Assembly (NCBI GenBank): GCA_964582615.1 | Contig: CAZORP010000005.1 | Coordinates: 11,994 to 75,993, forward strand | Length of the DNA: 64,000 nucleotides | Source: an uncultured Gammaproteobacteria bacterium | Lineage (GTDB): Bacteria > Patescibacteriota > Patescibacteriia > UBA9934 | Reading direction: 5' to 3' | Shown here: in pieces, positions 7,692-41,238 of the stretch | How the letters are laid out: every line of letters begins with the position of its first letter | Numbering within the stretch: the first letter of the stretch is position 1 | Translations under genes and position numbers: made by a program | The notes under the pieces: model-generated | Database searches by the model: none | Told to the model about the DNA's origin: nothing | Seen by the model: the letters and a program-made list of their open reading frames with translations, nothing else

Positions 7692-7694
7692 CCT

Positions 7695-11572: not shown

Positions 11573-12002
11573 GCTCTTGTTCCAACTGGCGACCTTCTTC
11601 AATCAACGAAGCAAGATTCGTGCGCGCATTTTCCATGAGTACAACATCCTGCGATGAAGCCTTTTGAAGCTCCCCCTGTAAGCGAAGAAGCTCCCCCTGC
11701 AACACGTTGCATGCATTTTGCAAAAGTCCCTCATGAATTCCGCGATACCCACGCAAATGCTGGAGTTCTTTTCCAGAAGACCAACCTTGACCGCCCATAA
11801 AAGACCCACTCGCCCGACGAAGCAAACGCTGAAGTCGAAGAATGTACTCACGCGCTGTTTCGACATTCCAAGATCCGTTATACACCAAATCTCCCCCATC
11901 TAAAGGATTCTGCGCTCGGAGTATGTCATTCATCTGGGAAAGTGCCGCGCGATCACGTTCTGGATCTCTGAAAAATTTTTTCATTTGCTCAAAAATTCTC
12001 AT
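11559..12002 (-). CDS. Hypothetical protein (147 aa)
   Basis: ATG-initiated ORF convergent with phr; no recognised domain. Confidence 0.4.
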   Translation of the reverse strand: MRIFEQMKKFFRDPERDRAALSQMNDILRAQNPLDGGDLVYNGSWNVETAREYILRLQRLLRRASGSFMGGQGWSSGKELQHLRGYRGIHEGLLQNACNVLQGELLRLQGELQKASSQDVVLMENARTNLASLIEEGRQLEQELNRF

Positions 12003-12670: not shown

Positions 12671-12715
12671 AGATTCTTCCTGCTATGCTATGGGGTGAAG
12701 ATTTTTTTCTTTACT

Positions 12716-14488: not shown

Positions 14489-15863
14489 CTCAGGACTTCT
14501 TACCACTACAGAAGGAGGGGCTGGAGGCATCATTGGATACGCTTCTTCACCACTTGAAAATACAAGAATAACCATTGATGACAGCTTCTCTCGAGCATCG
14601 TACGGAACTTCAGGATGGCCAAGTATTAACGCTTATTCCACAGAATTCCCTCCACAGGTTAGTAACTTCTCCTTCGATGCAACCGCGGCAGATACGCTTA
14701 TTTGTGACCAAGAAGAAGCTTTTTCCTGCACTGTTGTTAATGAATCGGCAGATGAAGATGATTTCTTCTTTATAACAACACATAGCCCAATGGACTCTTG
14801 GGATTTTGATGATGTGTGGCAAGAAGAAACCGATGCCCTTCCAACGCTCAGAGTTGTGTATACCTATACCGAGCCCCTCGTCACAACGACTCCCGCACAT
14901 GGACGAGCATCTCATCGCGCCACGCTTTCAGGAGAAATTCTTGATAACGGCGGAGCCGCAGTTACCGAAGTTGGCGTTATTTACGGAACAACACGAGAGT
15001 ACGGTAACACCGTATCAGACGAGGGATTCTTTGAAGCCGGCAGTTTCGATGTTACCGTAAGCGGACTTCACTGCGGAAGAACCTACTATTACCGCGCTTT
15101 TGCAATAAACCAAATGGGCACCACGCTCGGAAGAAGTGAAACCTTCAGAACCTCAAGTTGCGACGATGACACCCCATCATCGGGAGGAGGATCGTCATCA
15201 TTGCCGTCTATACCAGACGCTTCCAATGAAGACTCCTCAGAAGAGGCTACACCAGAAGACACATCATCAGGCGAAGAATCGTCAACCGAGGAGGAGGAAG
15301 ATGAGGAGCAATCCCCCATCCACCGCGATGACGCAACATCTTCCTACGACACCTCTCGTCAACGATTTGTTGCAGAAGATTCTGGAGAAGTAGATAGCTC
15401 AGGTCGAGCATTGTCACGTGTTGCTTCAGGATGGTTTGTTCGCAGTGAACAGTTCTCAACGGTGTACTACATTGATAGCTCTTATGTACGTCATCCACTT
15501 TGGGATACACAAACGTTCTTTACATGGGCAGATTCATGGGATGACATTACCTGGGTTACCGATGCTACCCTTGCAACCATGCCCCTTGGAAAGCCAGTGC
15601 TTCCTAAGTCTGGAGTGGTGCTTGTGAAACTTGAGAGTGATCCTTCGGTATATGCGGTAGATGAAGATACTTCAGGAAACAGTATCCTTCGCCGCGTTCC
15701 TTCCGAAGAAGATGCTCGTGCACTCTTTGGATCTTCTTGGCAGTCGTACGTCATTGATATTCCTCCTACGATCTTCCCTCACTTTGGTAAGGGATCTCCC
15801 CTGACCAAGGATGAGGCATGGGATGCGGGAGGGATGAAGGAACGAGCATTGTTAAGCCTTTAA
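14460..15863 (+). CDS. Giant surface protein A, 3' part (GTG-opened frame): more GLUG-like repeats, an Fn3-like domain, an acidic S/E-rich linker and the C-terminal domain shared with protein B
   Basis: Continues the repeats (GGAGGIIGYASS) in a different frame. Fn3-like GRTYYYRAFAINQMG. The last ~176 codons are identical to the end of the 21112-24552 ORF. Confidence 0.7.
   Translation: MTLRLISAYSSGLLTTTEGGAGGIIGYASSPLENTRITIDDSFSRASYGTSGWPSINAYSTEFPPQVSNFSFDATAADTLICDQEEAFSCTVVNESADEDDFFFITTHSPMDSWDFDDVWQEETDALPTLRVVYTYTEPLVTTTPAHGRASHRATLSGEILDNGGAAVTEVGVIYGTTREYGNTVSDEGFFEAGSFDVTVSGLHCGRTYYYRAFAINQMGTTLGRSETFRTSSCDDDTPSSGGGSSSLPSIPDASNEDSSEEATPEDTSSGEESSTEEEEDEEQSPIHRDDATSSYDTSRQRFVAEDSGEVDSSGRALSRVASGWFVRSEQFSTVYYIDSSYVRHPLWDTQTFFTWADSWDDITWVTDATLATMPLGKPVLPKSGVVLVKLESDPSVYAVDEDTSGNSILRRVPSEEDARALFGSSWQSYVIDIPPTIFPHFGKGSPLTKDEAWDAGGMKERALLSL
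15309..15836 (+). repeat. 528-bp perfect direct repeat, copy 1 (3' module of giant gene A)
   Basis: Identical line by line to 23989-24516 (offset 8680 bp); identity breaks at both flanks. Confidence 0.95.
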
Positions 15864-15891
15864 AAAAACACGCCTTCGGGCGTGTTTTTTT
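15862..15891. terminator. Bidirectional intrinsic terminator
   Basis: aaaaaaaCACGCCttcgGGCGTGttttttt lies between convergent genes. Confidence 0.8.
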
Positions 15892-15905
15892 ATATCTCGA
15901 GTTTT

Positions 15906-17762
15906 TTAGTACTCAGTAACGATATTGAGTTGGGGAATGTGCACCATTCCAGCAAGGATAAGATTTTGCATATCTTTTTCCTCGGGAGTCTTCGGGCTTG
16001 GCATCTCTCCCCCAAGATACATCTTTAACCACATTTTCTGTCCAAAGTCATACCCCTCAGCTCGACGTAAAGCCTTTCTTGCAAGATCATCTTCACCAAA
16101 AATTTCGCTTCGTGAGGTTCCGCGTAACTCCTCATCTTTTCGCAACGATGCAAAAGAGAGCATGTCTTCGTAAAGTTCAAGAAATGTTGCGAGATCTTTG
16201 GCATACTCCGCATGCGCGACACGTCGTCCAGAAAATATCTCAGAAGCATCGCCTTTCTCACGAAGAAGAATTTCCTTCAACCTGCCCGGAAGGCCACTCC
16301 ATAGGCGATCGCGCGCAACATAACTCATTATCTCGGATGATGTAAAACTTTCGCGATCAGACGGTGAGAGTTCAGCGATGCTCAAGCGGATTTCTTGTAC
16401 TGCGAATCGCAAACAGTCTCGACGTAATATGATACCAGGAAGACGATCGCCGAGAGAGTCTTTTCTTAGATTTTCCCTTGCTTTATATAAAGATTCCCGC
16501 ATCTTTATAAGTTCTTGACGACGGGGCTCAAGTTCTTTTCGAGCGCGCGCAACCTCCTGCAATTGATCGCGAAGATTTTCACTCTTTTTTTGCACGCCCT
16601 CTCTTCTCCACTTCCACGCATCATACGCATAGGCATCCTGAAGATGCTTTGGAAGTTCACCCTTCGCACCAGCAATTGCATCAGCAATAACATCAGGACG
16701 CTCAAGTTCGCTGCGAAGATTCTCCACATACGCTCTTGCTTGAGCAAGCTTCTGACCAAGTTGGCGCTTCTTCACTATTCTCCAAGAAGAACACTCCGCC
16801 TCTTCTTTTTCAAGCTCACGAAGACGAACCTCGCGCTCTGCGGCTCGCAATTTACTCTCAATTCGTTCAGATCGCTCTTGACGATTCTTGTACGAAAGCG
16901 CATCTCGCTCGTCTTCTTTAACAATACGAAGAGCTTCTTTTTGCATGCGAAGCTCATGGCTATCAAGCTGTTTCTTCGCTTTAAGACGTTCAAAAATATT
17001 CCAGAGCGGAATCTTTTCATACGCCGCCGTTAACATCTGCTGACGTTCACGAAACGACGCCCAAGAATGCGGGAGATTCTCGGACTTATCGTGAAGAGAC
17101 TCCCCGCGAAGAGCGGGTCTTTGAGGAACTCCAAGTACAACTCTTGTGATTTCTTTTTGAGGAACCCTCTCAACTTCAAGAGGAGTAATAAACCTATCAG
17201 GCAACTCTTCAAGAATACCTTCCGACGTATCAAGAGGGGCAAGGAATTCATCAGGCAACTCTTCCGGAATATTCAGTGAAAGAGTTTTAACGTGCATTAA
17301 CATTGCATCAAGAAGGTGCTCCTCAAGAAGCATTCCCTGCCTATCCCTCGCTCGACCATCAGCATCAGCTTCGCTTATCTGCTTATGGAGTTCTTGTCGG
17401 CGGCGTATAAGTACCGCTTGATACTTCTGCACGGAGGGAAACGCACCTACCTCACGATCAACGCGCTCCCTCGCAAGAAGAGCGGCGAGTTCTCGAGCTT
17501 CTCCAAGCACCTGAGCTCGACTGCCATCATATGGCCCAGTATTAACATACCTCTGCTTAAGAGAGCTCCAGTAACTCTCATGATCTATCCCAGATTCGAG
17601 ACGCAACTGTGCAAGTCTTCTTCCTGCATCCTGGAGAGCATCCGCCTTATTCCTTGGATCTTTATGAGGAACAACTCCTTGGGAAGACCCTACTTCTAAT
17701 CTTGGCGAGCGACGCTCTGGGGGTCTACGCTCTGGGGATCCAGATGCAGAAAATCTTTCCAT
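15906..17762 (-). CDS. Hypothetical highly charged coiled-coil protein (618 aa)
   Basis: Long ATG ORF rich in E/R/K/L heptad-like segments. Transcribed divergently from giant gene B. Confidence 0.6.
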   Translation of the reverse strand: MERFSASGSPERRPPERRSPRLEVGSSQGVVPHKDPRNKADALQDAGRRLAQLRLESGIDHESYWSSLKQRYVNTGPYDGSRAQVLGEARELAALLARERVDREVGAFPSVQKYQAVLIRRRQELHKQISEADADGRARDRQGMLLEEHLLDAMLMHVKTLSLNIPEELPDEFLAPLDTSEGILEELPDRFITPLEVERVPQKEITRVVLGVPQRPALRGESLHDKSENLPHSWASFRERQQMLTAAYEKIPLWNIFERLKAKKQLDSHELRMQKEALRIVKEDERDALSYKNRQERSERIESKLRAAEREVRLRELEKEEAECSSWRIVKKRQLGQKLAQARAYVENLRSELERPDVIADAIAGAKGELPKHLQDAYAYDAWKWRREGVQKKSENLRDQLQEVARARKELEPRRQELIKMRESLYKARENLRKDSLGDRLPGIILRRDCLRFAVQEIRLSIAELSPSDRESFTSSEIMSYVARDRLWSGLPGRLKEILLREKGDASEIFSGRRVAHAEYAKDLATFLELYEDMLSFASLRKDEELRGTSRSEIFGEDDLARKALRRAEGYDFGQKMWLKMYLGGEMPSPKTPEEKDMQNLILAGMVHIPQLNIVTEY

Positions 17763-17884
17763 ATCACTAAGTATACTTGAGTGCTTGTTTCACAGAAAAA
17801 ATTATACACATATTTTTTTTCAAAAAATGCTTTTTTAAAAAAGAAAACCAACTTAATTCGTGCTATTATAGAAAAAATTTTGCT

Positions 17885-20800
17885 ATGCATTTTTTCAAAA
17901 AATTTCTCTCACTTTTTAGCCTTATAACCCTTGGTATTTTAGCGGTACTTCACCCGACTATAACTCACGCCGATCCCGATACTACTCCCCCATCATTTGT
18001 ATCCGCCTATATTACCGGCGACCATAGCGTCACCATTACCTATTCAGAAACGCTTTGGTGGAATTTTTCTGATGCATATGCGAACTTTACCGGAGATTTT
18101 GCAGGAAAAAACATCATCGCACAGAGTGAAAATTCCTCAAGCAATCATATTGTCCTTATTTTTGACGGTCCTGTTTTTGAAAGCAACTTCTCGGGAACAC
18201 TCGATATTCTCGCGGGAGAAGTTCAGGACTTTTCAGGAAATGCCTTTGGTGGGCTTTCCGGTGTACTCATTACCCGCCAACCACAAGCAACACAAGTAAT
18301 CTGGAATGATGTCGACGCTTCAAGAGATTTTTCCGGAACCGATACCCTCACGGTGCAGTTCAGTACTGTCATGAACGAATCTTCAATTACCACAGAAAAC
18401 ATTGATAGCCGCCTCGGTCTTTCCGCGGGAACATTTGGAACTTCCGCCGCGGGACTTAGCCTCTCATGGGACCTCATGGGAGATCCCTCCTTCTCAACAC
18501 TCACCATTACTCTTGGCAGTGATACAACCATCGTTCACGGAGCAACCATCAATCCAAGCTCAAGCGTTACCAATAGCTCAGGAGCTCCGGACGCAACACC
18601 ATCAAACCTTATCCTCAGTACCGATTATTACTTTGCAGAATTTTGGAATCTTCCCGCGGAGTCCGATGAATCTCCAGCTTTTCCCACGGGAGAGCCGGAT
18701 TATCAATCAAATAGTGAGGAAATTAATTTCATGTGGAGTGAGGAATCTCCAAATCCCGCCATTAACACCGACGATTTTGCGGCTCGTTTTACAAGAACCA
18801 CAACACTTACCAACAATCATTACACCTTTTCCTTCAGCGAACTTGATGACGGAGTCAAACTTTATATTGATGATGAACTCATCTTTTCTTCATGGGTCGA
18901 TCAGGGATCCGCAAGTTATAACGTAGAAGCTCGAATAACACCAGGAGAACACACCATCGTTCTGGAATATTATGAAAACGGTGGAGGTGCAGGTATTATC
19001 TTTAGCATGTCAGGTGACACGCTCGCGGACACTGTGTATGTTGATTCCACATATGCAAGCGAACTTGCCAACGATGGTCACACCTGGGGTTACGACGCAT
19101 TTTCAAATATTTTTAGCGCCATTAGCGCGACTGCGGGAAATGGAACCGTACACATCGGTGATGCAGAGTGGGCAACTTCTGACAGCATCAATCTCACCTT
19201 CCCTATTACCATAGATGGCGAAGGTGCAGGCATAACTCGAATAAAAAACGTTTCCTGTACAACGGTATTTAACATTCAATCAAGCAACGTTACCATTCAA
19301 GATCTTACCGCAGGAAGTTACGACGGTTTTGGATCGGATCTCTGCACAAGTAGTGACGTTATTTACGCGGTTGGAACGTCCACGACACCAATTAGTTCAA
19401 TTTCACTTTCCCATGTAGACCTCCACGGTGGAGATGGAGGAGTTTATTTTGGCGAATATATTTCAGACGCTACCGTTACCGGAAGTACAGTATCGGAAGC
19501 ATATACAGGAATTTACCTTGCCAGCTCAACTGATGTTACAATCTCGGGATCGACACTTGAAAACAATACCGCGGAAGCAATCTTCTTTACCCTTGGATCC
19601 TGCGAGGAATGCAGTCTCATGCCACCGTCAATGATCACTATTGACGACAACCTCATTCAAGGAAATCTTGGCGCGGGAATTACCCTAGAAACCGGCGACA
19701 CCATTACCATTTCTTCAAATACCATCTCCGATAACGGATGGGATTGGTGGGATATCTCAGGCGGTATCGTTGTACGAGGAGAGTGGGGGGAAACGCGCAG
19801 TCTTACTATTTCAGGAAATACCCTCTCTCAAAATTCAGCTCACGGTATCTACATTCATCAACCAACTGACCTTGAAGCAGATGCTCCAACACTAAGCGAC
19901 AACATCATCGTTCGAACAGGCATGAATGATGCCGACGAAACATATCCTGCAACGGCAGGTGTAACAATTCTTGCTTCAAGCGTTACCTGTGAGGGAAATT
20001 CTATTGGAGAAAATTCAGGATCGGGTATCGTCCTTGGAAGTATCGATGTTTACCCAGAAAATGTTACGATCAGTACCAATATCCTTGGATCTTTTACGCT
20101 TCCCGATACAACTTCCTACGGAGGAAATACCGCGAATGGTCTCACCGTCGTCCACTTCGCCGGCACCGCAAATAGCATTCACCAAAACATTATTAGAGAT
20201 AATGCATTACTCGCCGCAGAAAATAGCAATGGCTCTGAGATTGACTTAACACTCAACTACTGGGGACATTTTACGGGACCATTTCATTCTTCGGAGCACA
20301 TGACTGGTCGAGGCGATACCATTGGTAACGATATTCTTTTTACACCCTACAATGAAGGACCGGAAACCCTCACGCTTAACGATCCTCTTGTAAGTTTCTT
20401 TAGCGCCCCTGAAGATGCCTCAGAAATCACCGACGCTACGCTTGGCGTAGTACTTGAAACCAGCGCATCTCGAGATCAGCACGCAGCTTTCGTTTCTCGC
20501 AACGATGACCTTTTAGCCTTCTGGAGATTTGAGAACATGGGACCAAATGAGGGATCTTTAAGCATCCCTATGAACGTTGGCGGAGCAGACCCCTATCTTT
20601 ATCAAGGACATTACGGAAGCTCAGCAAAATTCGATGGTGTGAGTGCACTTTTCGCAAATGAAAGCATCCTTTCATCACGTCCAGAGTTTACCCTTGCAGG
20701 ATGGGTTTACATCGACGAAGACGTGCTCTCAGGTCAACGACGCGGATTCTTCGGTGAGAATAATGCCTTTGAAGTTGGTTTTGACACCGATCACCTCACC

Positions 20801-21355
20801 ATTTATACCGACCTTGTAGGAAATGTTAGTTGGGAGGTAACTCCAGAAAATTTCCCTGTTCGCACATGGCATCACATTGCCGCAGTTTTTGAACCTTCCG
20901 GAACAAATCCCCTTACGCTTTATGTTGATGGCGTAGCTGTTGCCGAAGGTGGCAGTTCTGGACCCTATGTCACGGAAGGATTCTACGAATCCCCTCTTGC
21001 GCTTGGCGGTGCGTCATTGACGCTTCCTGTGGGGACGATGCGCTTGTTGGAAGACTTGATGATGTATTTCTCTTCAATCGAGCACTGCAAAGCGACGAAG
21101 TCCTCTCCCTTATGGACGCAGGAGAAAATCCCTACACGAATCTTACCTACCCACTTGATGACGGTGAGTACACTATTCAAGGTTTCGTTATTGATGGCGG
21201 TGGCGACATGGAATCAACCTCGTCGCGGTCATTCTTTGCAACATACACCCCTCCTGTATACAGCCTCTACGTTGACGATGACTACACGCCCGAAGGAGAA
21301 AATGATGGTCATGTTTGGGGAGAAACAGCATTCGCGGATCTTGATAGCGCGCTAG
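17885..21355 (+). CDS. Giant secreted surface protein B, 5' part: signal peptide, PA14 domain, parallel beta-helix (PbH1) repeats and a LamG/ConA-like domain. The frame breaks by -1 near 21017; the last ~110 codons of this ORF are out of frame.
   Basis: Signal peptide MHFFKKFLSLFSLITLGILAVLHPTITHA. PA14-like DDGVKLYIDDELIFSSW...YYENGGGAGIIF. PbH1 repeats (NTISDNGWDWWDISGGIVV, NTLSQNSAHGIYIH). LamG core TLAGWVYIDED...TLYVDGVAV. Confidence 0.75.
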   Translation: MHFFKKFLSLFSLITLGILAVLHPTITHADPDTTPPSFVSAYITGDHSVTITYSETLWWNFSDAYANFTGDFAGKNIIAQSENSSSNHIVLIFDGPVFESNFSGTLDILAGEVQDFSGNAFGGLSGVLITRQPQATQVIWNDVDASRDFSGTDTLTVQFSTVMNESSITTENIDSRLGLSAGTFGTSAAGLSLSWDLMGDPSFSTLTITLGSDTTIVHGATINPSSSVTNSSGAPDATPSNLILSTDYYFAEFWNLPAESDESPAFPTGEPDYQSNSEEINFMWSEESPNPAINTDDFAARFTRTTTLTNNHYTFSFSELDDGVKLYIDDELIFSSWVDQGSASYNVEARITPGEHTIVLEYYENGGGAGIIFSMSGDTLADTVYVDSTYASELANDGHTWGYDAFSNIFSAISATAGNGTVHIGDAEWATSDSINLTFPITIDGEGAGITRIKNVSCTTVFNIQSSNVTIQDLTAGSYDGFGSDLCTSSDVIYAVGTSTTPISSISLSHVDLHGGDGGVYFGEYISDATVTGSTVSEAYTGIYLASSTDVTISGSTLENNTAEAIFFTLGSCEECSLMPPSMITIDDNLIQGNLGAGITLETGDTITISSNTISDNGWDWWDISGGIVVRGEWGETRSLTISGNTLSQNSAHGIYIHQPTDLEADAPTLSDNIIVRTGMNDADETYPATAGVTILASSVTCEGNSIGENSGSGIVLGSIDVYPENVTISTNILGSFTLPDTTSYGGNTANGLTVVHFAGTANSIHQNIIRDNALLAAENSNGSEIDLTLNYWGHFTGPFHSSEHMTGRGDTIGNDILFTPYNEGPETLTLNDPLVSFFSAPEDASEITDATLGVVLETSASRDQHAAFVSRNDDLLAFWRFENMGPNEGSLSIPMNVGGADPYLYQGHYGSSAKFDGVSALFANESILSSRPEFTLAGWVYIDEDVLSGQRRGFFGENNAFEVGFDTDHLTIYTDLVGNVSWEVTPENFPVRTWHHIAAVFEPSGTNPLTLYVDGVAVAEGGSSGPYVTEGFYESPLALGGASLTLPVGTMRLLEDLMMYFSSIEHCKATKSSPLWTQEKIPTRILPTHLMTVSTLFKVSLLMAVATWNQPRRGHSLQHTPLLYTASTLTMTTRPKEKMMVMFGEKQHSRILIAR

Positions 21356-24300
21356 AAATCGCAACGCCAAACTCAACGATCACCATGGCATCGGGCTATT
21401 ACGAAACTGTTCTTGGTTACGATATCACTCTCGAAGGACTCACCATCGAAGGCCCTGAAGACATGAGTGCACGTATCGTAAATCCGCTCTGCGGGGATGT
21501 TTTTAACATCTACGCACCATCGGTCACCATCACCCACCTCACCCTCGAAGAACGCGATGGCGATGGAGCGATCTGTGAAGAAAATGAGGTCATAAGCCTA
21601 TGGCATGATCCTGAAAGCATATGGGACGCTTCGTCTGCCGAAATAAGTTACAACGTCATCACGGGAGGTTATCGAGGAGTATATCTCTCAGGACACATGG
21701 AGGACGTAACTATTACATCAAACACCATCTCTGAAAGTACATATGGCATTCGATCTTACGGTGGAAAACGAACAGTTATCGACGATAATACTATTATAGA
21801 AAATTTTATTGGTATTCGTTTTGATGACCATGACTGTAGCGAGGAAGGCTGTGAAAGTTATCCCGAAGACGTCATCATTCAATTCAACAACATCAGCTAT
21901 AACGACGAAGACGGTCTTAATCTTGACGAAGGAAAACGAACCATCGTTTCGGGCAATGCCTTCTTCGAAAATGGTCATGATTCTGAATTTGGAGGAGGAA
22001 TCTACATATCCGACATCGGACTTGATGGAACAGAAATTGATACAAATACGTTCATCAACAACGTATCTTACGGTATCTACATCTCTGCTGAGGAAACCAG
22101 CGCGGAAAGCCCTATATCTATCACGAATAACACCATTCTTCAAGACACCGTAGGTGAGGATACTCGCGGAATTGATGTAAATGGAGACTATATTTCCATC
22201 ACCGAAAATAGTATCGCCGGCTACGCTGAAGGAATTCGCGCCTGCAGTGACTATCTCAATACTGCAACCATTTCCGAAAATACCCTCGGAGCCATCACTA
22301 TCGAAGATACAAGTTTCCCCGGAAACACCATCGGACTAGGCATGTACTGCGGAGACACTGTCACCGTTGAGCGTAATACCTTTTCAGGAAACGAAGTCGG
22401 TCTTCATAACTTTTCAACAGAAACCGTGACCGCTCAATACAACTACTGGGGTGCGGCATCAGGACCAACAAACCTCACCAACCCCGAGGGATCCGGAGAT
22501 CAGCTCAATGAAAACGACGGCATCTTCACTAATCCTTATACTTACGGAGAAGAAGATGGAACGTATCATTTCCTTGTAACACTTTCCGCTCCCAACAACA
22601 ACGTCATCTACCGTCCCTTCTTTAGCGATGAAGAAATGACTACGGAAGTCACCGGAGAAAACATCCCCTTCACGTTAACTCGAGCAGGCGTTAGCTTTGG
22701 AGAGTCCTCCGTTGAAGAGTCCACCTTAGCGCAAGAGGACAGCGAAGGTCTCCTCTTTGGAGAATATACCTTCACAAGCGACAGCCCACTTTCCTGTGGA
22801 AGATCTTATCTTTACCGCTACGATGCAACGCTTAACGATGAGGTATTCCTTTCAACAACGGAAACCTTTATCGCCGATGCGTGTACCGATAACGAAGGAC
22901 CTGAAATCGTTACTATTTCAGCAGAAGCAGAAGAGACGACCGCGACGCTCTCCTTTGAAACCAATGAACGATCGTCGTACCTTCCTCGAATTGGCACACA
23001 CCTCGATCTTCTTGAAGAACTCTTCCTTGAGGACGATGCATTTACTACAGCAGAACATACTGCAGAATTTGATGAACTTACCCCCTGTACGAAGTACTAC
23101 GTCACTCTTGAACTCTCTGACAGTCTTGGAAATGTCTCAACAGATACCGTGGCAGAATTTACCACGCAAGGATGTCCCGGAAATGCAGAAATGGTGAATA
23201 TTGGAACGGAAATTTTTGACCCCGAAGAAAGCGAATTGTTTGGACTTTCCGCCGAAGATTTCTCAGCCAGCATTTTCGCAGATGAAGACTTCTTCATTCT
23301 TCCCACCGCCTTCCAAATGTCACTCTTTATTGCCGATGAAGTTTTTGACGGTATGGGCGATCCCGCAAGAACAACACTCGCAAGCTCACACCTTGCCCAA
23401 GTGAATGCTTTCGTTTTTGGAACCAATCTTGTAGAAACCCTAAGTGAACCCATTTCCGTCAGTGTAAACTACGACGCCGAACTCGTTCCCGAAGAAGATC
23501 TTGAAAAACTCTTCATCTACAGCTATCGCAACCATCACTGGAGTAAACTCTCTGACTGCACCACGGACACCGAGGAATATCGCATTACATGTACTACCGA
23601 CGAGCCCGGGCTCTTTGGAGCTTTTATCCAGGAAGATCGTCGATCGTCATCATCAGCACCAGCAACGCCTCCTCGCGTCGTTTCGGAAACCCCAGAAGGA
23701 ACCGTGCCAACCTGCACCCTACCTCGAAAAACCACCTCACTCAACATCCCCTTCTCTTGTACCGCAACGGGAAGCTCAACACGTTCCATGAGCTTTACCG
23801 AAACCTACCAAGGAAAAACATCCTTATCCTCTGGTCGCTACACTTCCAAAGATACCCTTCTTCTTCGCGAAGGCGCCGGAGAACACACCATTGTCATCAC
23901 ACTTACATCACAGACGGGAGAAATCCTCACCCTACCCACGTTTACCGTCACGGTAGAAGATGCCCACGGACAGATCTCAACATCATCTCAATCCCCCATC
24001 CACCGCGATGACGCAACATCTTCCTACGACACCTCTCGTCAACGATTTGTTGCAGAAGATTCTGGAGAAGTAGATAGCTCAGGTCGAGCATTGTCACGTG
24101 TTGCTTCAGGATGGTTTGTTCGCAGTGAACAGTTCTCAACGGTGTACTACATTGATAGCTCTTATGTACGTCATCCACTTTGGGATACACAAACGTTCTT
24201 TACATGGGCAGATTCATGGGATGACATTACCTGGGTTACCGATGCTACCCTTGCAACCATGCCCCTTGGAAAGCCAGTGCTTCCTAAGTCTGGAGTGGTG

Positions 24301-24552
24301 CTTGTGAAACTTGAGAGTGATCCTTCGGTATATGCGGTAGATGAAGATACTTCAGGAAACAGTATCCTTCGCCGCGTTCCTTCCGAAGAAGATGCTCGTG
24401 CACTCTTTGGATCTTCTTGGCAGTCGTACGTCATTGATATTCCTCCTACGATCTTCCCTCACTTTGGTAAGGGATCTCCCCTGACCAAGGATGAGGCATG
24501 GGATGCGGGAGGGATGCTCTCTCGCGCACAGATTTCCGCCGCATCGTTATAG
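20930..24552 (+). CDS. Giant surface protein B, 3' part: completes the LamG domain (..GRLDDVFLFNRALQSDEVLSLMDAGENP), then more PbH1 repeats with NYWG..SGP motifs, Ig/Fn3-like domains and the shared C-terminal domain. The frame is open from ~20930; the first ATG is at 21112.
   Basis: The canonical LamG terminal motif lies in the +2 frame immediately after the break. Beta-helix repeats follow (NTISESTYGIRSYGG, NNISYNDEDGLNLDEG). Confidence 0.75.
23989..24516 (+). repeat. 528-bp perfect direct repeat, copy 2 (3' module of giant gene B)
   Basis: Identical to 15309-15836. Confidence 0.95.
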
Positions 24553-31991: not shown

Positions 31992-32026
31992 GCTAACGTC
32001 CAATACTCTTGGACGTTTCTTTTTTT

Positions 32027-33196
32027 ATGTCATCACCAACCCTTTGCCCAAACGCCGACGTCTGCGGAAGTTGCGGATGGAGCCATATTGCCTACGAACA
32101 TCAGCTCACACAAAAACAAGCCGATATCAATGCCTCCTTCGCGCTCAAGGAACTCCCCTATACCGTAAATGCCATACACGCATCTCCAAAAATCGATCAC
32201 TATCGTAACCGCATGGATTTTGTCATCGATTGGCAAGGCAGTGTGGGACTACGCGAACAAGGAAAGTGGTGGCGCGTCATTGATAATCACCCCTGCTTCC
32301 TCGCCGATGAGCGAATTGATGAACTCTTTGCCGTGTGTCGATCTTGGGCGAAAACCTGCGGACTCTCTTTCTTTGATCGAAAGGCAATAACAGGAACTTT
32401 GCGCTACGCGGTTATTCGCACAACAACACAAAAAGAAAGCATGGTAACTATTGTCACGAGTGCTCCGGAAAATTCTGAACACGAGATTCGCATTACCGCT
32501 ACGCTCCACGATCTCGTGAAGAATCTTGAAGACACCCATAAAGATGGCCATCTTACCGTACTTTGGGCGATTAACCACACCCCATCGGACGTTTCACATG
32601 GAGGGGAGTATCGCATTATTTCAGGAAAGGGATTTATTGAGGAAGAAATCGCCAATGTACGCTATCGCATTTCACCAAACGCCTTCTTCCAAACTAATCC
32701 GCATGCCGCCCCCCTTCTTCTTGATGCCGTAACTCGAGCCCTCGGAGATCTCTCGGGAAAAACCTTCCTTGATCTTTACTGCGGAACAGGATTCTTCTCC
32801 CTTGCACTTGCAGGCAAGGCAAAAAAAACTCTTGGTATCGAAATCGTTCCAGAAGCTATCGATGACGCACGGCAAAATGCAATGATCAATCATCTTGAAG
32901 ACAAGGTCACCTACCTTGCACAACCCACTGAACAGGTCGATTGGCTAAGCTATCAACCCGACATCGTACTTCTTGATCCTCCACGTGCAGGACTTCATCC
33001 CTCAACGCTTGAAACCCTCAAGGATCCTCGGGCACCTCAAGATATTGTTTACGTGTCTTGCAACTATAAAAATCTTGCACGAGAAATGGCACTCCTTAAG
33101 GAGTTTTATACCGTAACCTTCATGGAGGCTATTGACATGTTTCCCCACACACCACACGTTGAAGTTGTTGCAACTCTTAAAAAACGCTCCTCCTAG
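32027..33196 (+). CDS. 23S rRNA (uracil-5-)-methyltransferase RlmD/RumA-like (Fe-S cluster plus class I SAM methyltransferase)
   Basis: Cys cluster CPNADVCGSCGW; SAM motif LDLYCGTGFFSLALAG; VLLDPPRAG. The ATG at 32027 is preferred over the TTG at 32009, which lies inside the upstream terminator. Confidence 0.85.
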   Translation: MSSPTLCPNADVCGSCGWSHIAYEHQLTQKQADINASFALKELPYTVNAIHASPKIDHYRNRMDFVIDWQGSVGLREQGKWWRVIDNHPCFLADERIDELFAVCRSWAKTCGLSFFDRKAITGTLRYAVIRTTTQKESMVTIVTSAPENSEHEIRITATLHDLVKNLEDTHKDGHLTVLWAINHTPSDVSHGGEYRIISGKGFIEEEIANVRYRISPNAFFQTNPHAAPLLLDAVTRALGDLSGKTFLDLYCGTGFFSLALAGKAKKTLGIEIVPEAIDDARQNAMINHLEDKVTYLAQPTEQVDWLSYQPDIVLLDPPRAGLHPSTLETLKDPRAPQDIVYVSCNYKNLAREMALLKEFYTVTFMEAIDMFPHTPHVEVVATLKKRSS

Positions 33197-33258
33197 GGGC
33201 GTTTTTCTATCCTCACGAACTATTTTTTTCACGAGAAAACAACGTATACTTACCATGT

Positions 33259-34938
33259 ATGCTGAAAGAAAGTCCCAATGCCACAAAAGAACGCGTAGAA
33301 CGTCCCCACGAAATAGAGCACATTCTTACGATACTTAGCGACATCGCCGCATCAGATGACATTCATCACCGTGCATTTGGCGCCTTTTGCAAGACATTTC
33401 TTAGTACCAACGAAAAAGCGTCTTTGGAAAAACTCTCAACACTCCTTGATTACTATCAGGGCATCTTCAGCGCCCCCACATCTCCAGAAGAGAATATTGC
33501 AAAGCTTAAGACCATCTTTGAATGCGCTGACTACATGGGACTATCTACACAGGCACACATTGAGGCAAAGGATCTCATCGGCGCCTTTGAGGATTTCTGC
33601 GTTCTTGAAAAATTTCTCACCCTCTGCAACCTCTCGCTTACTTCAAGCACTGAAGAAATCTCCCAGAGAATACCAAAAACAGCTCGTGACGAAGTATACG
33701 CCAACCTGCCATCTTCAGAAAAAAGAGCACTACAACGAGTGGTTATCCATCGACACAGACTTTTCCACATCTTCTCAAACTTTTTTTCAGCACAAAAAAA
33801 CCTTCACTATATCTGCAAAAAAATCAATGATCTCTTTTTAAAAGAAGATCGACAATCACTTCTTGCAGAAGAATTCTCATGCGAAGAAGATGATGTAGTC
33901 TTCTCACTTGCAGACGCAGAAGCCTTGGCAAATAAAGGCAAGCTTTTTTCCGTTCTTTACTTGGATTATGCGCATGGCAATGATCTAAACCTTAGAAGAT
34001 ATCCATACCTTCAAAAGCTCATACAACACCCTCAAATTAAAACAAATCCCGTCATCATTGGAGACGTCTCTATTTTCGAAGAATTTCACGCAGAACCACT
34101 TCTCTCACGAGCGATCTTTAGAGGGAGTGTGATGTTATTAAACTTGGAAAAGAATATTCATCTTAACTATGGAAAACTTATCTACGCAAAACCCGCCCTG
34201 GAAATGCCACTAACTGAAGAAGCCAAAAAAGAACCGGAACCACTGCTTCCTATGCATATTCAAGGAAAGGGAACTGTGTGCATGGAACTACCTTGCAACG
34301 TTAACCTCGACCCGGGTATTTACGAGACAACATTCAAAAGTACATGGTATGCATCAACGCTACCATCATCAACTCACATCATTATCGATACAGATATCGC
34401 AGACCCAGAAACATGCACGCTCCCGAGCGATCTCAGAAAACTAACCCTTCGAAGCGAAGGTGGCCTTAGATACATCAACAAACAACTCCTCTCATCTCTC
34501 ACCGATCTTACCGTCGAAACTCACATGTCAGAAAGTCACCGGATTCGAGAAGCACAAAGTCTTATAAACCTCACCCTTGCATACCCACTCGCATTAAAAG
34601 AATGCTATTCATCATCGCTTCTCTGTCTTGAAATAAAAAATCTTGGGCACAAATCCCCCACTGAACTCCCCAGCATTCCTCACCTCATTCTTCATGTCAC
34701 TCCAAATACCCCAAGCATCACGATACCTCAAGAAACCCGGCGTCTCACACTCCTCTTCGAGAGCACGCCAGCAGTGGAATTCAATTATCGTTCTACATCA
34801 GTAGCGAATCCCGTATCATTTAATGCGCGATCTTATCAAACATTCTTCTCGGGTCTCAAACTTCCACAAGAAACCCGCGTCGTCATTCCTTTGCGTGAAG
34901 CTCGGGAAGCCTATGAGAAATTTTTAAAAAATAGCTAA
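33259..34938 (+). CDS. Tandem paralogue 1 of a lineage-specific LRR-like protein family (559 aa)
   Basis: Shares its architecture with the next two genes: N-terminal helical region with the F(S)C(E/K)EEDVV motif, C-terminal ~22-24-aa L-rich repeats, C-terminal EAREAYEKFLKN. Confidence 0.7.
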   Translation: MLKESPNATKERVERPHEIEHILTILSDIAASDDIHHRAFGAFCKTFLSTNEKASLEKLSTLLDYYQGIFSAPTSPEENIAKLKTIFECADYMGLSTQAHIEAKDLIGAFEDFCVLEKFLTLCNLSLTSSTEEISQRIPKTARDEVYANLPSSEKRALQRVVIHRHRLFHIFSNFFSAQKNLHYICKKINDLFLKEDRQSLLAEEFSCEEDDVVFSLADAEALANKGKLFSVLYLDYAHGNDLNLRRYPYLQKLIQHPQIKTNPVIIGDVSIFEEFHAEPLLSRAIFRGSVMLLNLEKNIHLNYGKLIYAKPALEMPLTEEAKKEPEPLLPMHIQGKGTVCMELPCNVNLDPGIYETTFKSTWYASTLPSSTHIIIDTDIADPETCTLPSDLRKLTLRSEGGLRYINKQLLSSLTDLTVETHMSESHRIREAQSLINLTLAYPLALKECYSSSLLCLEIKNLGHKSPTELPSIPHLILHVTPNTPSITIPQETRRLTLLFESTPAVEFNYRSTSVANPVSFNARSYQTFFSGLKLPQETRVVIPLREAREAYEKFLKNS

Positions 34939-34941
34939 TGT

Positions 34942-36633
34942 ATGAAGCGTGAGTTAATGCCAAAAAATCCCGAGCGAGACCAATCGACGCAGGAAAAAAA
35001 TCTTCTCATCCTTGAAAAAAACCTTGAAGAGATGGAGAAGTATCCAACACTTCACAATGCCGCATTTGCTCGTTTTTGTCGTAAATTTTTAGTAAATCTT
35101 TCGCCTTACAACGTCGAAACTACTAGCGTGCTTCTTGATATCTGGAAAACGCATTACTTAAAAAATACACCCCCATTCTCACAAGAGAGTAATCGCGTTG
35201 AGCAACTATTCCTAGAATACAAAGACTTTTTTAAAGAAAAAAATCTCTCCATTCAAGAGCTTTTTATCGCCATTGACGACCTCTGTACTATAGATTCTTT
35301 TCTCAAGTTATCAGGTCTCTCACTAGACTCAACTAGCCAAGATATACGGACAAAGTTTGCAGGAAAAATATCAATCTTTGAAGATCTCCCAAATGATCAT
35401 CAGCAAAGATTAAAAAAATCTCTCCTCATGCGTGCGCGAGTGCAGTATTTTTTTGATAAAGATATCTTTAAAAATTTAGAAGATATTTGCTTAGAACTCG
35501 AATATTCTCTCTCAGAAGAAGACGCTAAGGGGCTTCTTGCTGATCTCTTTTCTTGCAAAGAAGAAGACGTTGTCTGTACGAAAGAAGATCTCTACAGAGT
35601 CTTAACTGAAAAAAAATATCCACGCGTATTCTACGCGCTCTATTCTCAGAAAAATTTCCCAGAAGTCATAAACTTTGAGGACGTCGATATTTCAGCCATT
35701 GAAGAACGCTACAATGCGAATTGTAAGAGAATGTATTTCGTGGGGAATATTGATCTACGGAAACAAGAGACCGCGGAACGTGTCTGCACTTTTGGTATTT
35801 TTCAAGGAAATGTACGACTAAGTGACGTTCAACCGAGCAGTATGCGTCTGCACTACGCCAATATCACGTACTGCGACAGTGAGCTTGGCGAAGAGACCAC
35901 TGAACCATCTTCCTGTGAAGTTGCAGGATATGGATCCATATCCGTCCATCGACCACTTAAAGATCTCGCACTTGGAGCGGGAATATATCACCTAGAACTC
36001 TCTAGTCCTGTTTCACGATTACTACAGGTTCCATATCTACAAAGCCTTGATCTTTCCTTTTCAAAAATTCCTCAGTCCATTGAAATCAACCCCCACCTCA
36101 AAACTCTTATCTTGCAAAATACCGAGAGTAGAATTTGGACAGAAATCCTTCCCATTGACAACCTCACAAGCCTCACCATGCGAGGTGTTAATAGAAGCAA
36201 CTTCCCCACCCAAGAAACCATCGCCTCTAAGGCACGCGGCCTTATGCATCTTGATCTGGAGCGCGGCTTATCAATAGTGGAAGCTTACCCAAAAAATCTT
36301 CAAAACCTCACGATGCGAGAAATTTCAGGACCAATATTTGGTAAAAAACTCGAAATTCCCACCGTACCAAACGTAACGCTTTACGTAAAGCCAACCAACG
36401 CTCCTCCAGAACTACCAGAAGACATCTCCAATCTCACAATACTATTCCCACAAAGTACCCCACCACAAAACACTATCCCGCGGGGAGTAAAAAGACTATC
36501 ATCCCATTATCAAGTGTCTGGGGATGGCCATGCGCAAAGTTTTCCAAATTTCACCCAAGAAAATCACGCTCCCCGCGTACTTACTAACGATGAGGCCCGA
36601 AAGGCTTATAAGGATTTTTTTAAAAATGGCTAA
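34942..36633 (+). CDS. Tandem paralogue 2 (563 aa), LRR-like C-terminal repeats
   Basis: The start context TAAtgtATGAAGCGTGA is conserved with paralogue 3. Repeats NLTSLTMRG.., NLQNLTMRE.., NLTILFP.. Confidence 0.7.
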   Translation: MKRELMPKNPERDQSTQEKNLLILEKNLEEMEKYPTLHNAAFARFCRKFLVNLSPYNVETTSVLLDIWKTHYLKNTPPFSQESNRVEQLFLEYKDFFKEKNLSIQELFIAIDDLCTIDSFLKLSGLSLDSTSQDIRTKFAGKISIFEDLPNDHQQRLKKSLLMRARVQYFFDKDIFKNLEDICLELEYSLSEEDAKGLLADLFSCKEEDVVCTKEDLYRVLTEKKYPRVFYALYSQKNFPEVINFEDVDISAIEERYNANCKRMYFVGNIDLRKQETAERVCTFGIFQGNVRLSDVQPSSMRLHYANITYCDSELGEETTEPSSCEVAGYGSISVHRPLKDLALGAGIYHLELSSPVSRLLQVPYLQSLDLSFSKIPQSIEINPHLKTLILQNTESRIWTEILPIDNLTSLTMRGVNRSNFPTQETIASKARGLMHLDLERGLSIVEAYPKNLQNLTMREISGPIFGKKLEIPTVPNVTLYVKPTNAPPELPEDISNLTILFPQSTPPQNTIPRGVKRLSSHYQVSGDGHAQSFPNFTQENHAPRVLTNDEARKAYKDFFKNG

Positions 36634-36636
36634 TGT

Positions 36637-38340
36637 ATGAAGCGTGAACTGGCGCCAGTGGAAACACTGAAGAGCGAAAGGCTTTTACTTGAAAAAAACT
36701 TTTCCTCCTGCGAATTTCATCCAAGAATGGAGATGCGCCTTTTTTCTTCATGGCTAAAAACCTTTCTCTACCCCATCCCAAAGACTGAAGCTGTCTGCGC
36801 CGTCATGCTTGACTTCATGCACGAATTTTTTGCAACGTACCGCGAAGAAAATGACATCCTCGCGCAAAAAGAGCCTCCAAAAACACTTCTTGATCTGGAA
36901 GAATCCCTCAAGCAAGAATTTCCCACGCTATCTCTACGAGAAATGTTTTCTTCGCTTCAACATCTTCTTCGACTCAAGCATCTTTTCCAAGAAATTCAGG
37001 TAAAGCATCTCCTAACGCAGAGAGATCGCTATGTTGGAAAAGATACGCTCACACGTATTCGTCAGGCCATCGGAGAGTATCTCCTGAAAAAGTCTGAAGA
37101 AGAAAAATTTCTCATCCTTGAGGCGCTCTGGAGCACTTCTCTTATCCGCTACCATTTCGGTAACGAAGAATTCTCGGACATAGATCAGGAATGTGCCGTA
37201 TTGCTAAGAAATGAGTACACCGTTACCGAGAGTGGAACTGCGCTCACGAAAAAATATTTTGCTCGCCGTTTTTCCTGCAAGGAAGAGGAGGTTATCGAAT
37301 TTAATGCTTTTAATATCGGACATACACTCATCCCAGATTCTCAGATAAAGGTTATCTATTATTCACGATCAAAGCACAATCCCGCTTTCAGCGAACTTGA
37401 GACAAGAGATGTCATGACCTTCCAAAATAACCTTCTCTCAAGACTTGAAAGCGAATCCACAATAGCCTTCTTTGGATCTGTAGAAGTTATGCCATCGGGA
37501 AATACCGGGAATGCGGATATGTACATAAACACGCTCCGCAACCATCAGTTCTTCTGCAGTAAACTCGATCTCCGCAACACCATTCCCAACATTCACCTCG
37601 CACAAGGAGGAGAAATTTCCATTAGTGGAAACATTCCAGGAAGCAATCAAGAGCGCATCTTCTCGGGAAAGATTACACACCTTATTCTTGACAGAAGTAC
37701 TCAGTGGCAGAACATAACCATCATGCCAGGCGCGAAGCACGTTACCATCAACGCATCATCCGCAGACATTCATCTTCCCAACTTTCTTCCTGAACTCACC
37801 TTAAAAGATACCGTCAATGGAGAAAATATTTTTCCACCAAAATCCATTGGCAAACTTGTTCTTTCCGAAAGAACAGAAAACCTCTTCCCCGGATCGGTAC
37901 AGCCCTCAATACAACACCTTGTCCTTGAAAAAACCAACTTTATCCCAAAGAATATCGCCAATATTTCAGCATTTGACGGAGAACTTCCCAAAGAAGGCCT
38001 TCCCCGAGGCATTACAACACTCATCCTTCCCGCACAACAGTCGCAAAAAACCACCTACCCCGAACATGTCATTACTTTTGGCATACGGTGCTCTCAAACA
38101 AGGATTCCAAAGACCCCCATTCCACAAACCTGCAGAGCACTCCTCATTTTTCCCAAAGTAACAAGCAATGACGTCACACGACAAGATCTTGAAAAATTTT
38201 TTAAAGATTTCTCAACACTCTCCATCCCCAGAAACGTTGAGCGTATTATCTTTAAAAATCCTCGTTATCAAGAATATTATACCGAGGTCTTCACAGGAAA
38301 AAATTCTCCAAAAGATCGTCATGAGCGTAAAGAATTTTAA
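36637..38340 (+). CDS. Tandem paralogue 3 (567 aa)
   Basis: MKRELAP.. N-terminus, FSCKEEEVIEF motif, L-rich C-terminal repeats. The terminator at 38341-38366 follows. Confidence 0.7.
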   Translation: MKRELAPVETLKSERLLLEKNFSSCEFHPRMEMRLFSSWLKTFLYPIPKTEAVCAVMLDFMHEFFATYREENDILAQKEPPKTLLDLEESLKQEFPTLSLREMFSSLQHLLRLKHLFQEIQVKHLLTQRDRYVGKDTLTRIRQAIGEYLLKKSEEEKFLILEALWSTSLIRYHFGNEEFSDIDQECAVLLRNEYTVTESGTALTKKYFARRFSCKEEEVIEFNAFNIGHTLIPDSQIKVIYYSRSKHNPAFSELETRDVMTFQNNLLSRLESESTIAFFGSVEVMPSGNTGNADMYINTLRNHQFFCSKLDLRNTIPNIHLAQGGEISISGNIPGSNQERIFSGKITHLILDRSTQWQNITIMPGAKHVTINASSADIHLPNFLPELTLKDTVNGENIFPPKSIGKLVLSERTENLFPGSVQPSIQHLVLEKTNFIPKNIANISAFDGELPKEGLPRGITTLILPAQQSQKTTYPEHVITFGIRCSQTRIPKTPIPQTCRALLIFPKVTSNDVTRQDLEKFFKDFSTLSIPRNVERIIFKNPRYQEYYTEVFTGKNSPKDRHERKEF

Positions 38341-38366
38341 AACCACCCAAGATCTGGGTGGTTTTT
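38341..38366. terminator. Bidirectional intrinsic terminator
   Basis: aaCCACCCaagatctGGGTGGttttt. Confidence 0.8.
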
Positions 38367-38898
38367 ATTCAATCAAGGAAACTCTTGAAGAACAAGGCTC
38401 CTCAATATTTTCTTGTGGCGTGATGTAGACACGGTACGTGGAGACTTCGCGAGCAAATGCTTCCGTTACCCGACTCGCATCGTTTGTGGAAAGTGTCACA
38501 AGTGAACGACTCTGCTGTGGATTAAAAAACTCTTCCTCCAATCGATTGTCATTGCTTGCAAGAAGCTGAAACGTCGGACACGATACCTCACCATCATGCA
38601 TCCATAAACTCTCTTCAAGAGGCGCGAGCGTCATCGTCGCAACTCCAGCAAGACGTTGCGAGGCGTTATCGTAAACAAGACAACGTCGACCAACGTCACA
38701 CGACGTGTCTGCATAGCGAAGTGTATACACCGTTTCCTGCAATGCATGTAGCGTCTTGACGACTCGCAAGTAATTTTCTGTCATGATACGCAAAACAACC
38801 ACAACGAGCGCTAGCGTAATGACCGTCAAAAGCCACATCCTCCACTCACGAGCGGAGGATGTTTTAGCAAGAGGTATCTTAACCTTGCTCCGCAACAT
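38365..38898 (-). CDS. Membrane-anchored hypothetical protein (single TM after a W-R-M-W motif, ~150-aa extracytoplasmic domain)
   Basis: ..SAREWRMWLLTVITLALVVVVL.. The start at 38898 was chosen by alignment to its upstream paralogue. Confidence 0.45.
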   Translation of the reverse strand: MLRSKVKIPLAKTSSAREWRMWLLTVITLALVVVVLRIMTENYLRVVKTLHALQETVYTLRYADTSCDVGRRCLVYDNASQRLAGVATMTLAPLEESLWMHDGEVSCPTFQLLASNDNRLEEEFFNPQQSRSLVTLSTNDASRVTEAFAREVSTYRVYITPQENIEEPCSSRVSLIE

Positions 38899-39094
38899 AT
38901 CCCGTGTCACGCAATTGCATGATGCGGTTGGTGAGTGCATTATTCTGCTTCATAAGAAGCACCATAACGAGCAATGAGAATGCGAGCGCGGCACATGTGA
39001 GAATCCACATACGCCATGATCCATTATTTGCCACTGACGAGCTTTGTGACTCGCGATTTTTTACCGTTGAACGAACTCCTCCTTGTTTTTTCAT
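38879..39094 (-). CDS. Short membrane-anchored paralogue (~71 aa) of the preceding gene
   Basis: ..NNGSWRMWILTCAALAFSLLVMVLL.. has the same N-terminal architecture and a truncated ectodomain. Confidence 0.4.
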   Translation of the reverse strand: MKKQGGVRSTVKNRESQSSSVANNGSWRMWILTCAALAFSLLVMVLLMKQNNALTNRIMQLRDTGYVAEQG

Positions 39095-39223
39095 ATATAC
39101 GCAGTATAGCATATCTTTTTCACGCTTGTGCATGAGGTTGGGGGTTGCATTTTTTTAAAAAAATGTGTATATTCTTTGTCTTATTTTTGGCGCGCAAACA
39201 TACTGCGCGATAACCTCGACACT

Positions 39224-40974: not shown

Positions 40975-41238
40975 CTACACCGAGGATCCTAACATCCACG
41001 CACGAAGCTCTGCCTCATCGCAAGATCCACAAATTTTTTGACCAGTCACATCATTGTAAAAGAATGGGACACCGCCACAAACACCCTGATCAATATCATG
41101 AAGCTTCTTTGCGTTCTCCTCATTATTCCAAACCTCAAACTTCTCTACCGTAACACCAAGTTCTCGTTCAAGTTTTTCCACCATCGGCATCATTACCAAG
41201 CAATGAGGACACTCGTCACCATAAAATTCGTAAAGCAT
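40975..41238 (-). CDS. Thioredoxin/glutaredoxin-like small protein
   Basis: CPHC active site, 87 aa. Confidence 0.75.
   Translation of the reverse strand: MLYEFYGDECPHCLVMMPMVEKLERELGVTVEKFEVWNNEENAKKLHDIDQGVCGGVPFFYNDVTGQKICGSCDEAELRAWMLGSSV

Follow-up and report, generated by a model that had tools for sequence, protein, structure and literature searches.

Three tandem genes predicted to encode leucine-rich-repeat-like proteins occupy a variable slot between rumA and era in an Uhrbacteria-like Patescibacterium

What kind of proteins do three large, consecutive genes of similar length encode, and what could they be for, in a bacterial chromosome whose surrounding genes are ordinary? This question is raised by contig CAZORP010000005.1 of GenBank assembly GCA_964582615.1, titled uncultured Gammaproteobacteria bacterium and placed by GTDB in the Patescibacteriota (UBA9934). 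The 64,000 nucleotides analyzed (contig positions 11,994 to 75,993) are here called the window, and all coordinates are those of the window. A preliminary description of the locus had proposed a rapidly diversifying, leucine-rich-repeat (LRR)-like protein family with an effector, adhesin, or internalin/BspA-like role. We found a genome-specific, self-contained operon of three genes, named A, B, and C, on an Uhrbacteria-like Patescibacterium chromosome, in a variable slot between a rumA-type methyltransferase gene and era. The account that we favor, to which we give about an even chance as a whole, is that of an accessory orphan operon of cytoplasmic LRR-type binding proteins sharing a helical N-terminal domain (N-domain).

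The three open reading frames (ORFs) lie on the plus strand at 33259-38340 in one shared reading frame, with only TAA and TGT separating each from the next, and their head-to-tail arrangement and lengths agree with those first described. Gene A (33259-34938) encodes 559 amino acids (aa), divided into a helical N-domain (approximately aa 1-245) and an LRR-like C-terminal half (approximately aa 256-559). Gene B (34942-36633; 563 aa) is the central family member and resembles both A and C, and gene C (36637-38340; 567 aa) is the most diverged copy, with degenerate repeats. No in-frame upstream start was present for any of the array ORFs. The junctions are nearly identical, as had been noticed before. 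The A/B junction (34896-34952, plus strand) comprises codons of the C-terminal helix, the TAA stop, the TGT spacer, and ATG AAG CGT GA, and together with the B/C junction (36591-36647, plus strand) it forms a 57-nt direct repeat whose two copies are 81% identical. Both can be written AAAAAT(A/G)GCTAATGTATGAAGCGTGA(G/A), with TAA-TGT-ATG inside. This is the longest direct repeat of the region, followed by the segment encoding the FSC motif described below (43 nt, 74%). Since the two junctions derive from a single ancestral one, the shared frame would arise by chance with a probability of only about 1 in 3. Identical codons were used at approximately 5/9 and 2/4 of the conserved junction residues, close to the gene-wide value of 44%; the likeness of the junctions therefore reflects conserved terminal peptides, and a special constraint at the nucleotide level was rejected. 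Reading through both stop codons would yield a single polyprotein of 1,691 aa. Direct reading of the sequence also confirmed that A, B, and C all start in the context ATGTATG. This heptamer occurs 8 times in the window (5.2 expected), and half of the occurrences (4/8) are at gene starts, the fourth gene being a thioredoxin-like one on the minus strand (40975-41238).

By BLASTP, A and B shared 25% identity over their full length (E value, 3e-36) and B and C shared 22% (E value, 7e-12). A and C reached an E value of only 0.03, too weak to link them directly, so that the three-way relationship is transitive and rests on B. Comparisons meant to reveal whether B is a chimera from unequal crossover showed B, along its entire length, to be closer to A and to C than these were to each other, with no clear breakpoint. 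Judged by these alignments and by the 57-nt direct repeat, A, B, and C are paralogues from tandem duplication whose divergence is ancient, and the first impression of strongly diverged tandem duplicates holds. The rapid diversification proposed with it is not supported: synonymous differences between the copies have reached saturation (proportion of synonymous differences, pS, 0.75-0.77), which leaves the ratio of nonsynonymous to synonymous substitution rates undefined and implies that the duplications are old, and the family is found in one genome only. No fourth copy was found within the window; an ORF pair of similar size and spacing (5976-9446) was considered and rejected, as it is an ABC-exporter pair. 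The G+C content, the G+C content at third codon positions (GC3), and the codon usage of A, B, and C were inside the range of window genes (z of G+C content, -1.0 to -1.6), and horizontal transfer was thus not supported by composition. Such values suggest either that the array has been resident long enough to look native or that its donor had a similar composition. As the family is absent from all sampled relatives, it either evolves much faster than its neighbors or arrived already diversified.

The C-terminal halves, of approximately 300 aa, contain irregular repeats of 19-26 aa with the unit (I/L)Pxx-LxxLxL. Chains of eight LxxLxL-type motifs spaced 17-27 aa apart were detected in the C-terminal halves of A and B and were matched by none of 2,000 shuffled sequences (0/2000), and the same shuffle test revealed nothing comparable in the N-terminal halves. 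In B, approximately 8-9 (I/L)Pxx-LxxLxL units could be placed at aa ~339-515. The chain of C was limited to three motifs and its repeats were degenerate; the leucine-rich repeats of approximately 22-24 aa reported earlier are thus present in A and B, over a somewhat wider range of lengths, and decayed in C. A conserved amphipathic C-terminal helix closes this half. It ends ..REAREAYEKFLKNS in A and ..NDEARKAYKDFFKNG in B, whereas in C it is internal (..TRQDLEKFFKD) and followed by a tail of 42 aa, so that the shared C-terminus EAR.AY..F.KN proposed for all three is terminal in A and B only.

None of the three proteins passed a Pfam LRR threshold, the best match being LRR_14 in B, which scored 13 bits where the cut-off is 40 (E value, 0.044), and Pfam FNIP gave no match at an E value of ≤1. 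Remote relatives were recovered with profiles. An exhaustive HMMER search of 1.84e9 representative proteins with an A+B+C profile recovered A, B, and C and, in addition, five weak matches (E values, 3e-6 to 2e-4), all confined to the repeat region; three were FNIP proteins (PF05725), one was an nSTAND1-NTPase-LRR protein, and one had no repeat-family match. Against PDB sequences, a profile of the C-terminal halves matched CroV588, a circular FGxxFN LRR protein (E value, 1.1e-8; 38 bits summed over five stretches), and CroV539 (E value, 1.1e-3). Comparison of the C-terminal halves with FNIP proteins using hhalign gave a probability of 76.5% (E value, 2.2e-5). AlphaFold2 (AF2) models, built from alignments of the three sequences A, B, and C, predicted short strands from residue 264 of B in a full-length model with a mean predicted local distance difference test (pLDDT) value of 60.5. 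Foldseek matches to this model were nearly all LRR proteins (E values, ≥2.6e-4; TM-scores, ≤0.3), led in PDB by NRC2, CroV588, and SKP2, all of LRR type, and in BFVD by F-box/FNIP proteins of giant viruses (best E value, 2.6e-4), in both cases with low TM-scores. From these profiles and models, the C-terminal half is predicted to be an LRR-type solenoid that is remotely FNIP/FGxxFN-like and falls outside PF05725.

The N-domain spans approximately 230-245 aa and is all-helical in the AF2 secondary structure of low-confidence models. In full-length B, 13 helices extend to approximately residue 223, followed by a poorly predicted linker (residues 224-263) that includes a short helix (250-257). 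When modeled alone, the N-domain comprised 12 helices (pLDDT, 66; predicted TM-score, 0.58). Together with the CroV588 profile match, hhalign, and Foldseek, this secondary structure bears out the two-part architecture of helical N-terminal and LRR-like C-terminal halves that had been suggested at the outset. Within the N-domain, conservation is highest in LLAxxFSC(K/E)E(E/D)xV, which lies at the C-terminal edge of the domain. A core of FSC followed by acidic residues was found in all three proteins, as previously noticed: FSCEEDDVV in A (aa 206-214; 33874-33900, plus strand), FSCKEEDVV in B (aa 203-211; 35548-35574, plus strand), and FSCKEEEVI in C (aa 212-220; 37270-37296, plus strand). Two of the nine cysteines of B (C183 and C205) are invariant. 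A profile of the N-terminal halves had no match among PDB sequences at an E value of ≤10, and the best Foldseek match of the N-domain had an E value of 1.3 with TM-scores of <0.25, which is no meaningful fold match. The N-domain is thus classed as an orphan, with no relatives detectable from its sequence or predicted fold.

The array appears to be transcribed on its own. Upstream, a hairpin resembling an intrinsic terminator (33180-33206, plus strand; 12-bp stem followed by UUUUUC; ΔG, -17 kcal/mol; z, -3.7) ends the rumA-type methyltransferase gene at 32009-33196 (Pfam tRNA_U5-meth_tr) and isolates the array as a separate transcription unit. Downstream, a bidirectional intrinsic terminator with a GC-rich stem of 11-12 bp between an A-run and a T-run was identified at 38339-38365 (ΔG, -18.2 kcal/mol on the plus strand and -17.9 kcal/mol on the minus strand; z, -5.0 and -4.6, respectively), where a terminator bounding the array had already been placed at 38341-38366. 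It closes the array and also serves the convergent minus-strand gene at 38365-38940. No full promoter was called upstream of gene A by a consensus σ70 scan; a candidate -10 box (TATACT; 33245-33250, plus strand) could be read from the sequence 8 nt before the ATG of gene A. The genome is poor in Shine-Dalgarno (SD) sequences, with an SD-like tetramer at 7 of the 51 gene starts of the window. Hexamers resembling TATACT or TATAAT and lying 7-12 nt before a start codon that lacks an SD were also seen upstream of many other genes of the window, among them those at 15906-17762 (minus strand), 25918, and 63127. This layout suggests that leaderless mRNAs are widespread in this genome and that the mRNA of gene A is leaderless or nearly so.

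By hydropathy, no signal peptide or transmembrane segment could be recognized in A, B, or C, the maximum 19-residue value being approximately 1.1 and the N-termini being charged and nonhydrophobic. No lipobox, LPXTG, GW, or other anchor was found in them. Pfam gave no match to LRR_5, LRR_4, internalin, NEL, F-box, or an enzymatic domain; no PADLOC family matched at an E value of ≤1; and NCBIfam and PHROGs had no match near threshold. NEL, F-box, and NLR (nucleotide-binding LRR) identities, each of which was considered, received no support from Pfam, PDB sequence searches, or Foldseek.

The family was then delimited by its distribution. When 5.8e9 proteins were searched through a word index, B itself was the sole match, degenerate-pattern searches of GTDB genomes, JGI metagenomes, and IMG/VR identified no relatives, and each protein formed a singleton cluster among 15e9 proteins. 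Beyond the NCBI contig, A, B, and C were present only on one identical Logan contig, from SRR16481183. The surroundings are by comparison well conserved. Relatives of the rumA-type gene (54-69% identity) came from metagenome-assembled genomes (MAGs) of Uhrbacteria or of the "Patescibacteria group" from groundwater and freshwater, and the gene order glmS-murF-GT2-spoU-rumA-[slot]-era-h314-trx-(mutY)-beta-CASP was conserved in 13 relatives. The names glmS, murF, and GT2 were given from ORF translations and the matches of relatives, only GT2 of these having been scanned with Pfam (Glycos_transf_2). Between rumA and era, the slot measured 373 bp to 3.8 kb in the 13 relatives, compared with 5.9 kb here, and never contained the A, B, C family. 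What those slots hold instead are minus-strand genes that fall into three families of small membrane proteins, and the window's own ORFs at 38365-38940 and 38879-39133 (both minus strand) are further members of these. An ordinary housekeeping family, the alternative raised with the preliminary description, is accordingly not what the survey of related genomes revealed, given that the family was found neither in the 13 syntenic relatives nor in any of the collections searched. In the literature on LRR proteins in Patescibacteria or Uhrbacteria, "leucine-rich repeat" was not mentioned among the matches listed.

The remainder of the window reads as ordinary chromosome, with genes for ABC exporters, photolyase, PIF1 helicase, SpoU, RumA, Era, Dus, BipA, DnaG, and ProRS, a HhH-GPD (MutY/Nth-type) glycosylase, and a beta-CASP RNase. 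Around the array, no flanking inverted or direct repeats, tRNA, integrase, transposase, or recombinase could be found, nor were secretion-system, toxin, or defense genes found near it. Two giant ORFs on the plus strand (17777-21355 and 21112-24552; 1192 and 1146 aa), which as listed overlap by 244 nt, carry Beta_helix/NosD, PA14, and Laminin_G_3 domains. They are likely of the surface or adhesin type and are better adhesin candidates than the array. Three further large ORFs at 12695-17762 (597 and 467 aa on the plus strand, 618 aa on the minus strand) had no Pfam family, a subthreshold match to Peptidase_M26_N being the only one. Downstream of the array, the overlapping minus-strand ORFs at 38365-38940 and 38879-39133 (191 and 84 aa) share a WRMW(I/L)LT... 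transmembrane segment. The shorter one resembles a truncated paralogue; the slots of relatives hold 1-2 full-length genes of this kind, encoding 230-290 aa. The Patescibacteria-type synteny of glmS, murF, GT2, spoU, rumA, and era was also seen, at 56-82% identity, in several MAGs whose title reads "uncultured Gammaproteobacteria bacterium" (SRP342105, ERP125453, and ERP113451); these are probably mislabeled.

Among characterized proteins, those with FNIP/FGxxFN LRRs (PF05725) of giant viruses and Dictyostelium, including CroV588 (6NYR) and CroV539 (7ZAL), are nearest to the array in both sequence and fold. They share a repeat of approximately 22 aa with the register (L/I)Pxx-hxxhxh, and they supplied the only significant remote sequence matches. 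FGxxFN LRR families also consist of expanded paralogues, often with a fused N-terminal nonrepeat domain, likewise do without the canonical Asn/Cys ladder, and can dimerize through their caps, CroV539 forming cap-swapped dimers (PMC9525666). The array differs from them in lacking the diagnostic FGxxFN/FNx7IP core with its double Phe spine, in its bacterial host, in its irregular repeats of 19-26 aa, and in having an orphan helical N-domain of approximately 240 aa in place of an F-box or kinase. F-box-LRR adaptors such as SKP2, FBXL2/17, the Ralstonia GALA proteins, and the F-box+FNIP proteins of giant viruses have the same order of an N-terminal helical module followed by LRRs, and several F-box-LRR proteins were among the Foldseek matches of the array model. 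However, the N-domain is approximately five times the size of an F-box and has neither a Pfam F-box match (E value, ≤1) nor a fold match. We know of no obvious use for an F-box in a bacterium without a ubiquitin system unless a eukaryote is targeted.

The IpaH/SspH/SlrP effectors with NEL domains are similarly two-domain proteins of approximately 550-600 aa in which LRRs are joined to an all-helical domain. In the helical domain of the array proteins, a conserved Cys precedes acidic residues, FSC(K/E)EED, which may be compared with the CxD motif of NEL domains. The domain order is nevertheless reversed, the LRRs of IpaH being N-terminal, there is no Pfam NEL match or type III secretion context, and no NEL structure appeared among the 50 listed of the 86 Foldseek matches of the N-domain (E values, ≤10). 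Internalins and BspA/TpLRR proteins (LRR_5) resemble the array in their LRR-type repeats of IPxx-hxxhxh flavor and in tandem expansion of paralogues; they differ in that the array proteins have no signal peptide or anchor, have no LRR_5, LRR_4, or internalin Pfam match, and are encoded away from surface-protein genes. In each of these comparisons the array fails on a defining feature of the known family. It is best described, on present sequence comparisons, as an orphan family within the tandem-expanded LRR-type proteins.

How might such an operon work? According to the account that we favor, A, B, and C would be transcribed together from their own promoter, with leaderless initiation at A and coupled reinitiation at B and C; translational coupling is suggested by the distance of only 3 nt between each stop and the next start. 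The products would be retained in the cytoplasm or, if exported, would take a route other than Sec. Each LRR solenoid would offer a ligand- or protein-binding surface of its own specificity, and the helical N-domain would act as a common output or scaffold module, possibly through an invariant Cys. Since the family is accessory and lineage specific, interaction with a partner, host, or phage would be likelier than a core cellular function. Several observations weigh against this account. The function is one that we infer for proteins in which no catalytic signature, partner, or informative neighbor was recognized, and the tight coupling is just as compatible with a hetero-oligomeric complex. 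The repeats have no Asn/Cys ladder like that of canonical LRRs, those listed having E, H, P, S, T, V, G, or I at position 9 after LxxLxL; no repeat contains the FN/FGxxFN core; and a single-unit FNIP hidden Markov model scored 0.7-3.7 bits on the array proteins, inside the range of shuffled controls. As the models are of low confidence (pLDDT, 60.5 and 66), the fold rests on secondary structure and on weak, mutually consistent matches. With three sequences, the invariant cysteines (2/9 in B) are statistically indistinguishable from background conservation.

Bacterial effectors and adhesins commonly carry LRR-type repeats, and Patescibacteria are generally host dependent. The proteins could be exported effectors or adhesins of an episymbiotic cell of the Candidate Phyla Radiation (CPR), with LRRs binding the host surface or cytosolic targets. 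These two points and the accessory nature of the family in its variable slot speak for such a role, as do the protist and giant-virus FNIP proteins that are its nearest repeat relatives. We nonetheless regard it as unlikely: no signal peptide, lipobox, transmembrane segment, or anchor was found, there is no internalin, LRR_5/BspA, or NEL Pfam match and no secretion or toxin gene in the neighborhood, and the obvious surface candidates of the window are other genes, the Beta_helix/PA14/Laminin_G giants at 17777-24552. The effector, adhesin, or internalin/BspA-like role proposed initially is for the same reasons not upheld. If the proteins remain inside the cell, as their hydropathy would allow, the array might be one of intracellular immune sensors, in which the solenoids would recognize different phage or foreign proteins and the N-domain would trigger a response. 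A hypervariable slot of the chromosome that holds diversified tandem paralogues would suit this idea, one remote match is an nSTAND1 NTPase-LRR protein, and the top PDB Foldseek match is the NLR protein NRC2. The alignment with NRC2 is, however, structurally meaningless (TM-score, 0.22; root mean square deviation, 15 Å), and the absence of an NTPase, nuclease, TIR, protease, or other effector domain, of PADLOC matches at an E value of ≤1, and of neighboring defense genes makes an immune function quite improbable.

The identical 3-nt spacers, the single frame, and the single transcription unit between two terminators would equally serve equimolar synthesis of three subunits of a hetero-oligomeric structural or scaffold complex, in which the conserved terminal helices could mediate cap interactions of the sort by which FGxxFN LRR proteins can dimerize (PMC9525666). 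Any such complex would have to be dispensable, the family being absent from every related genome, and we hold this possibility to be very slim. Presence in one genome only, similarity to the FNIP class, and a G+C content slightly under the window mean (z, -1.0 to -1.6) could instead point to foreign cargo recently acquired from a mobile element, a phage, or a giant-virus or protist FNIP donor. Against this stand codon usage and GC3 in the host range, the lack of an integrase, transposase, tRNA, or flanking repeats, the lack of relatives in IMG/VR or PHROGs, and the missing FN core. Spurious or decaying ORFs, a variant of the same explanation, are at odds with three intact ORFs of approximately 560 codons with conserved motifs, which are not decay products; recent acquisition or decay is the least probable of the explanations considered here. 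Hardly more probable is a bolder version in which the N-domain would be a new kind of effector or enzyme domain, dependent on the invariant FSC(K/E)EE cysteine and fused to an FNIP-class LRR targeting domain, and the operon a set of tools specific to Patescibacteria by which a host, possibly eukaryotic, would be manipulated or its proteins sensed.

Elsewhere, FNIP-class repeats are characteristic of protists and of the giant viruses of protists. Were the combination of a cysteine-dependent effector and FNIP-class targeting true, it would imply an unexpected association of Uhrbacteria with protists or gene flow with giant viruses. With a single genome and no link to a phenotype, the immediate importance of the array is modest, and it settles no long-standing question. 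It does suggest that Patescibacteria have FNIP-like (LPxx-LxxLxL) solenoids that lack the Phe-spine core, and it is useful for its sharp domain boundary, for an orphan N-domain whose short Cys motif is strongly conserved, and for the three natural variants within one operon. Orphan families are abundant in CPR genomes. If the picture of an accessory operon of cytoplasmic binding proteins is right, A, B, and C would add another lineage-restricted, repeat-based binding family to the "dark" accessory genome of the CPR.

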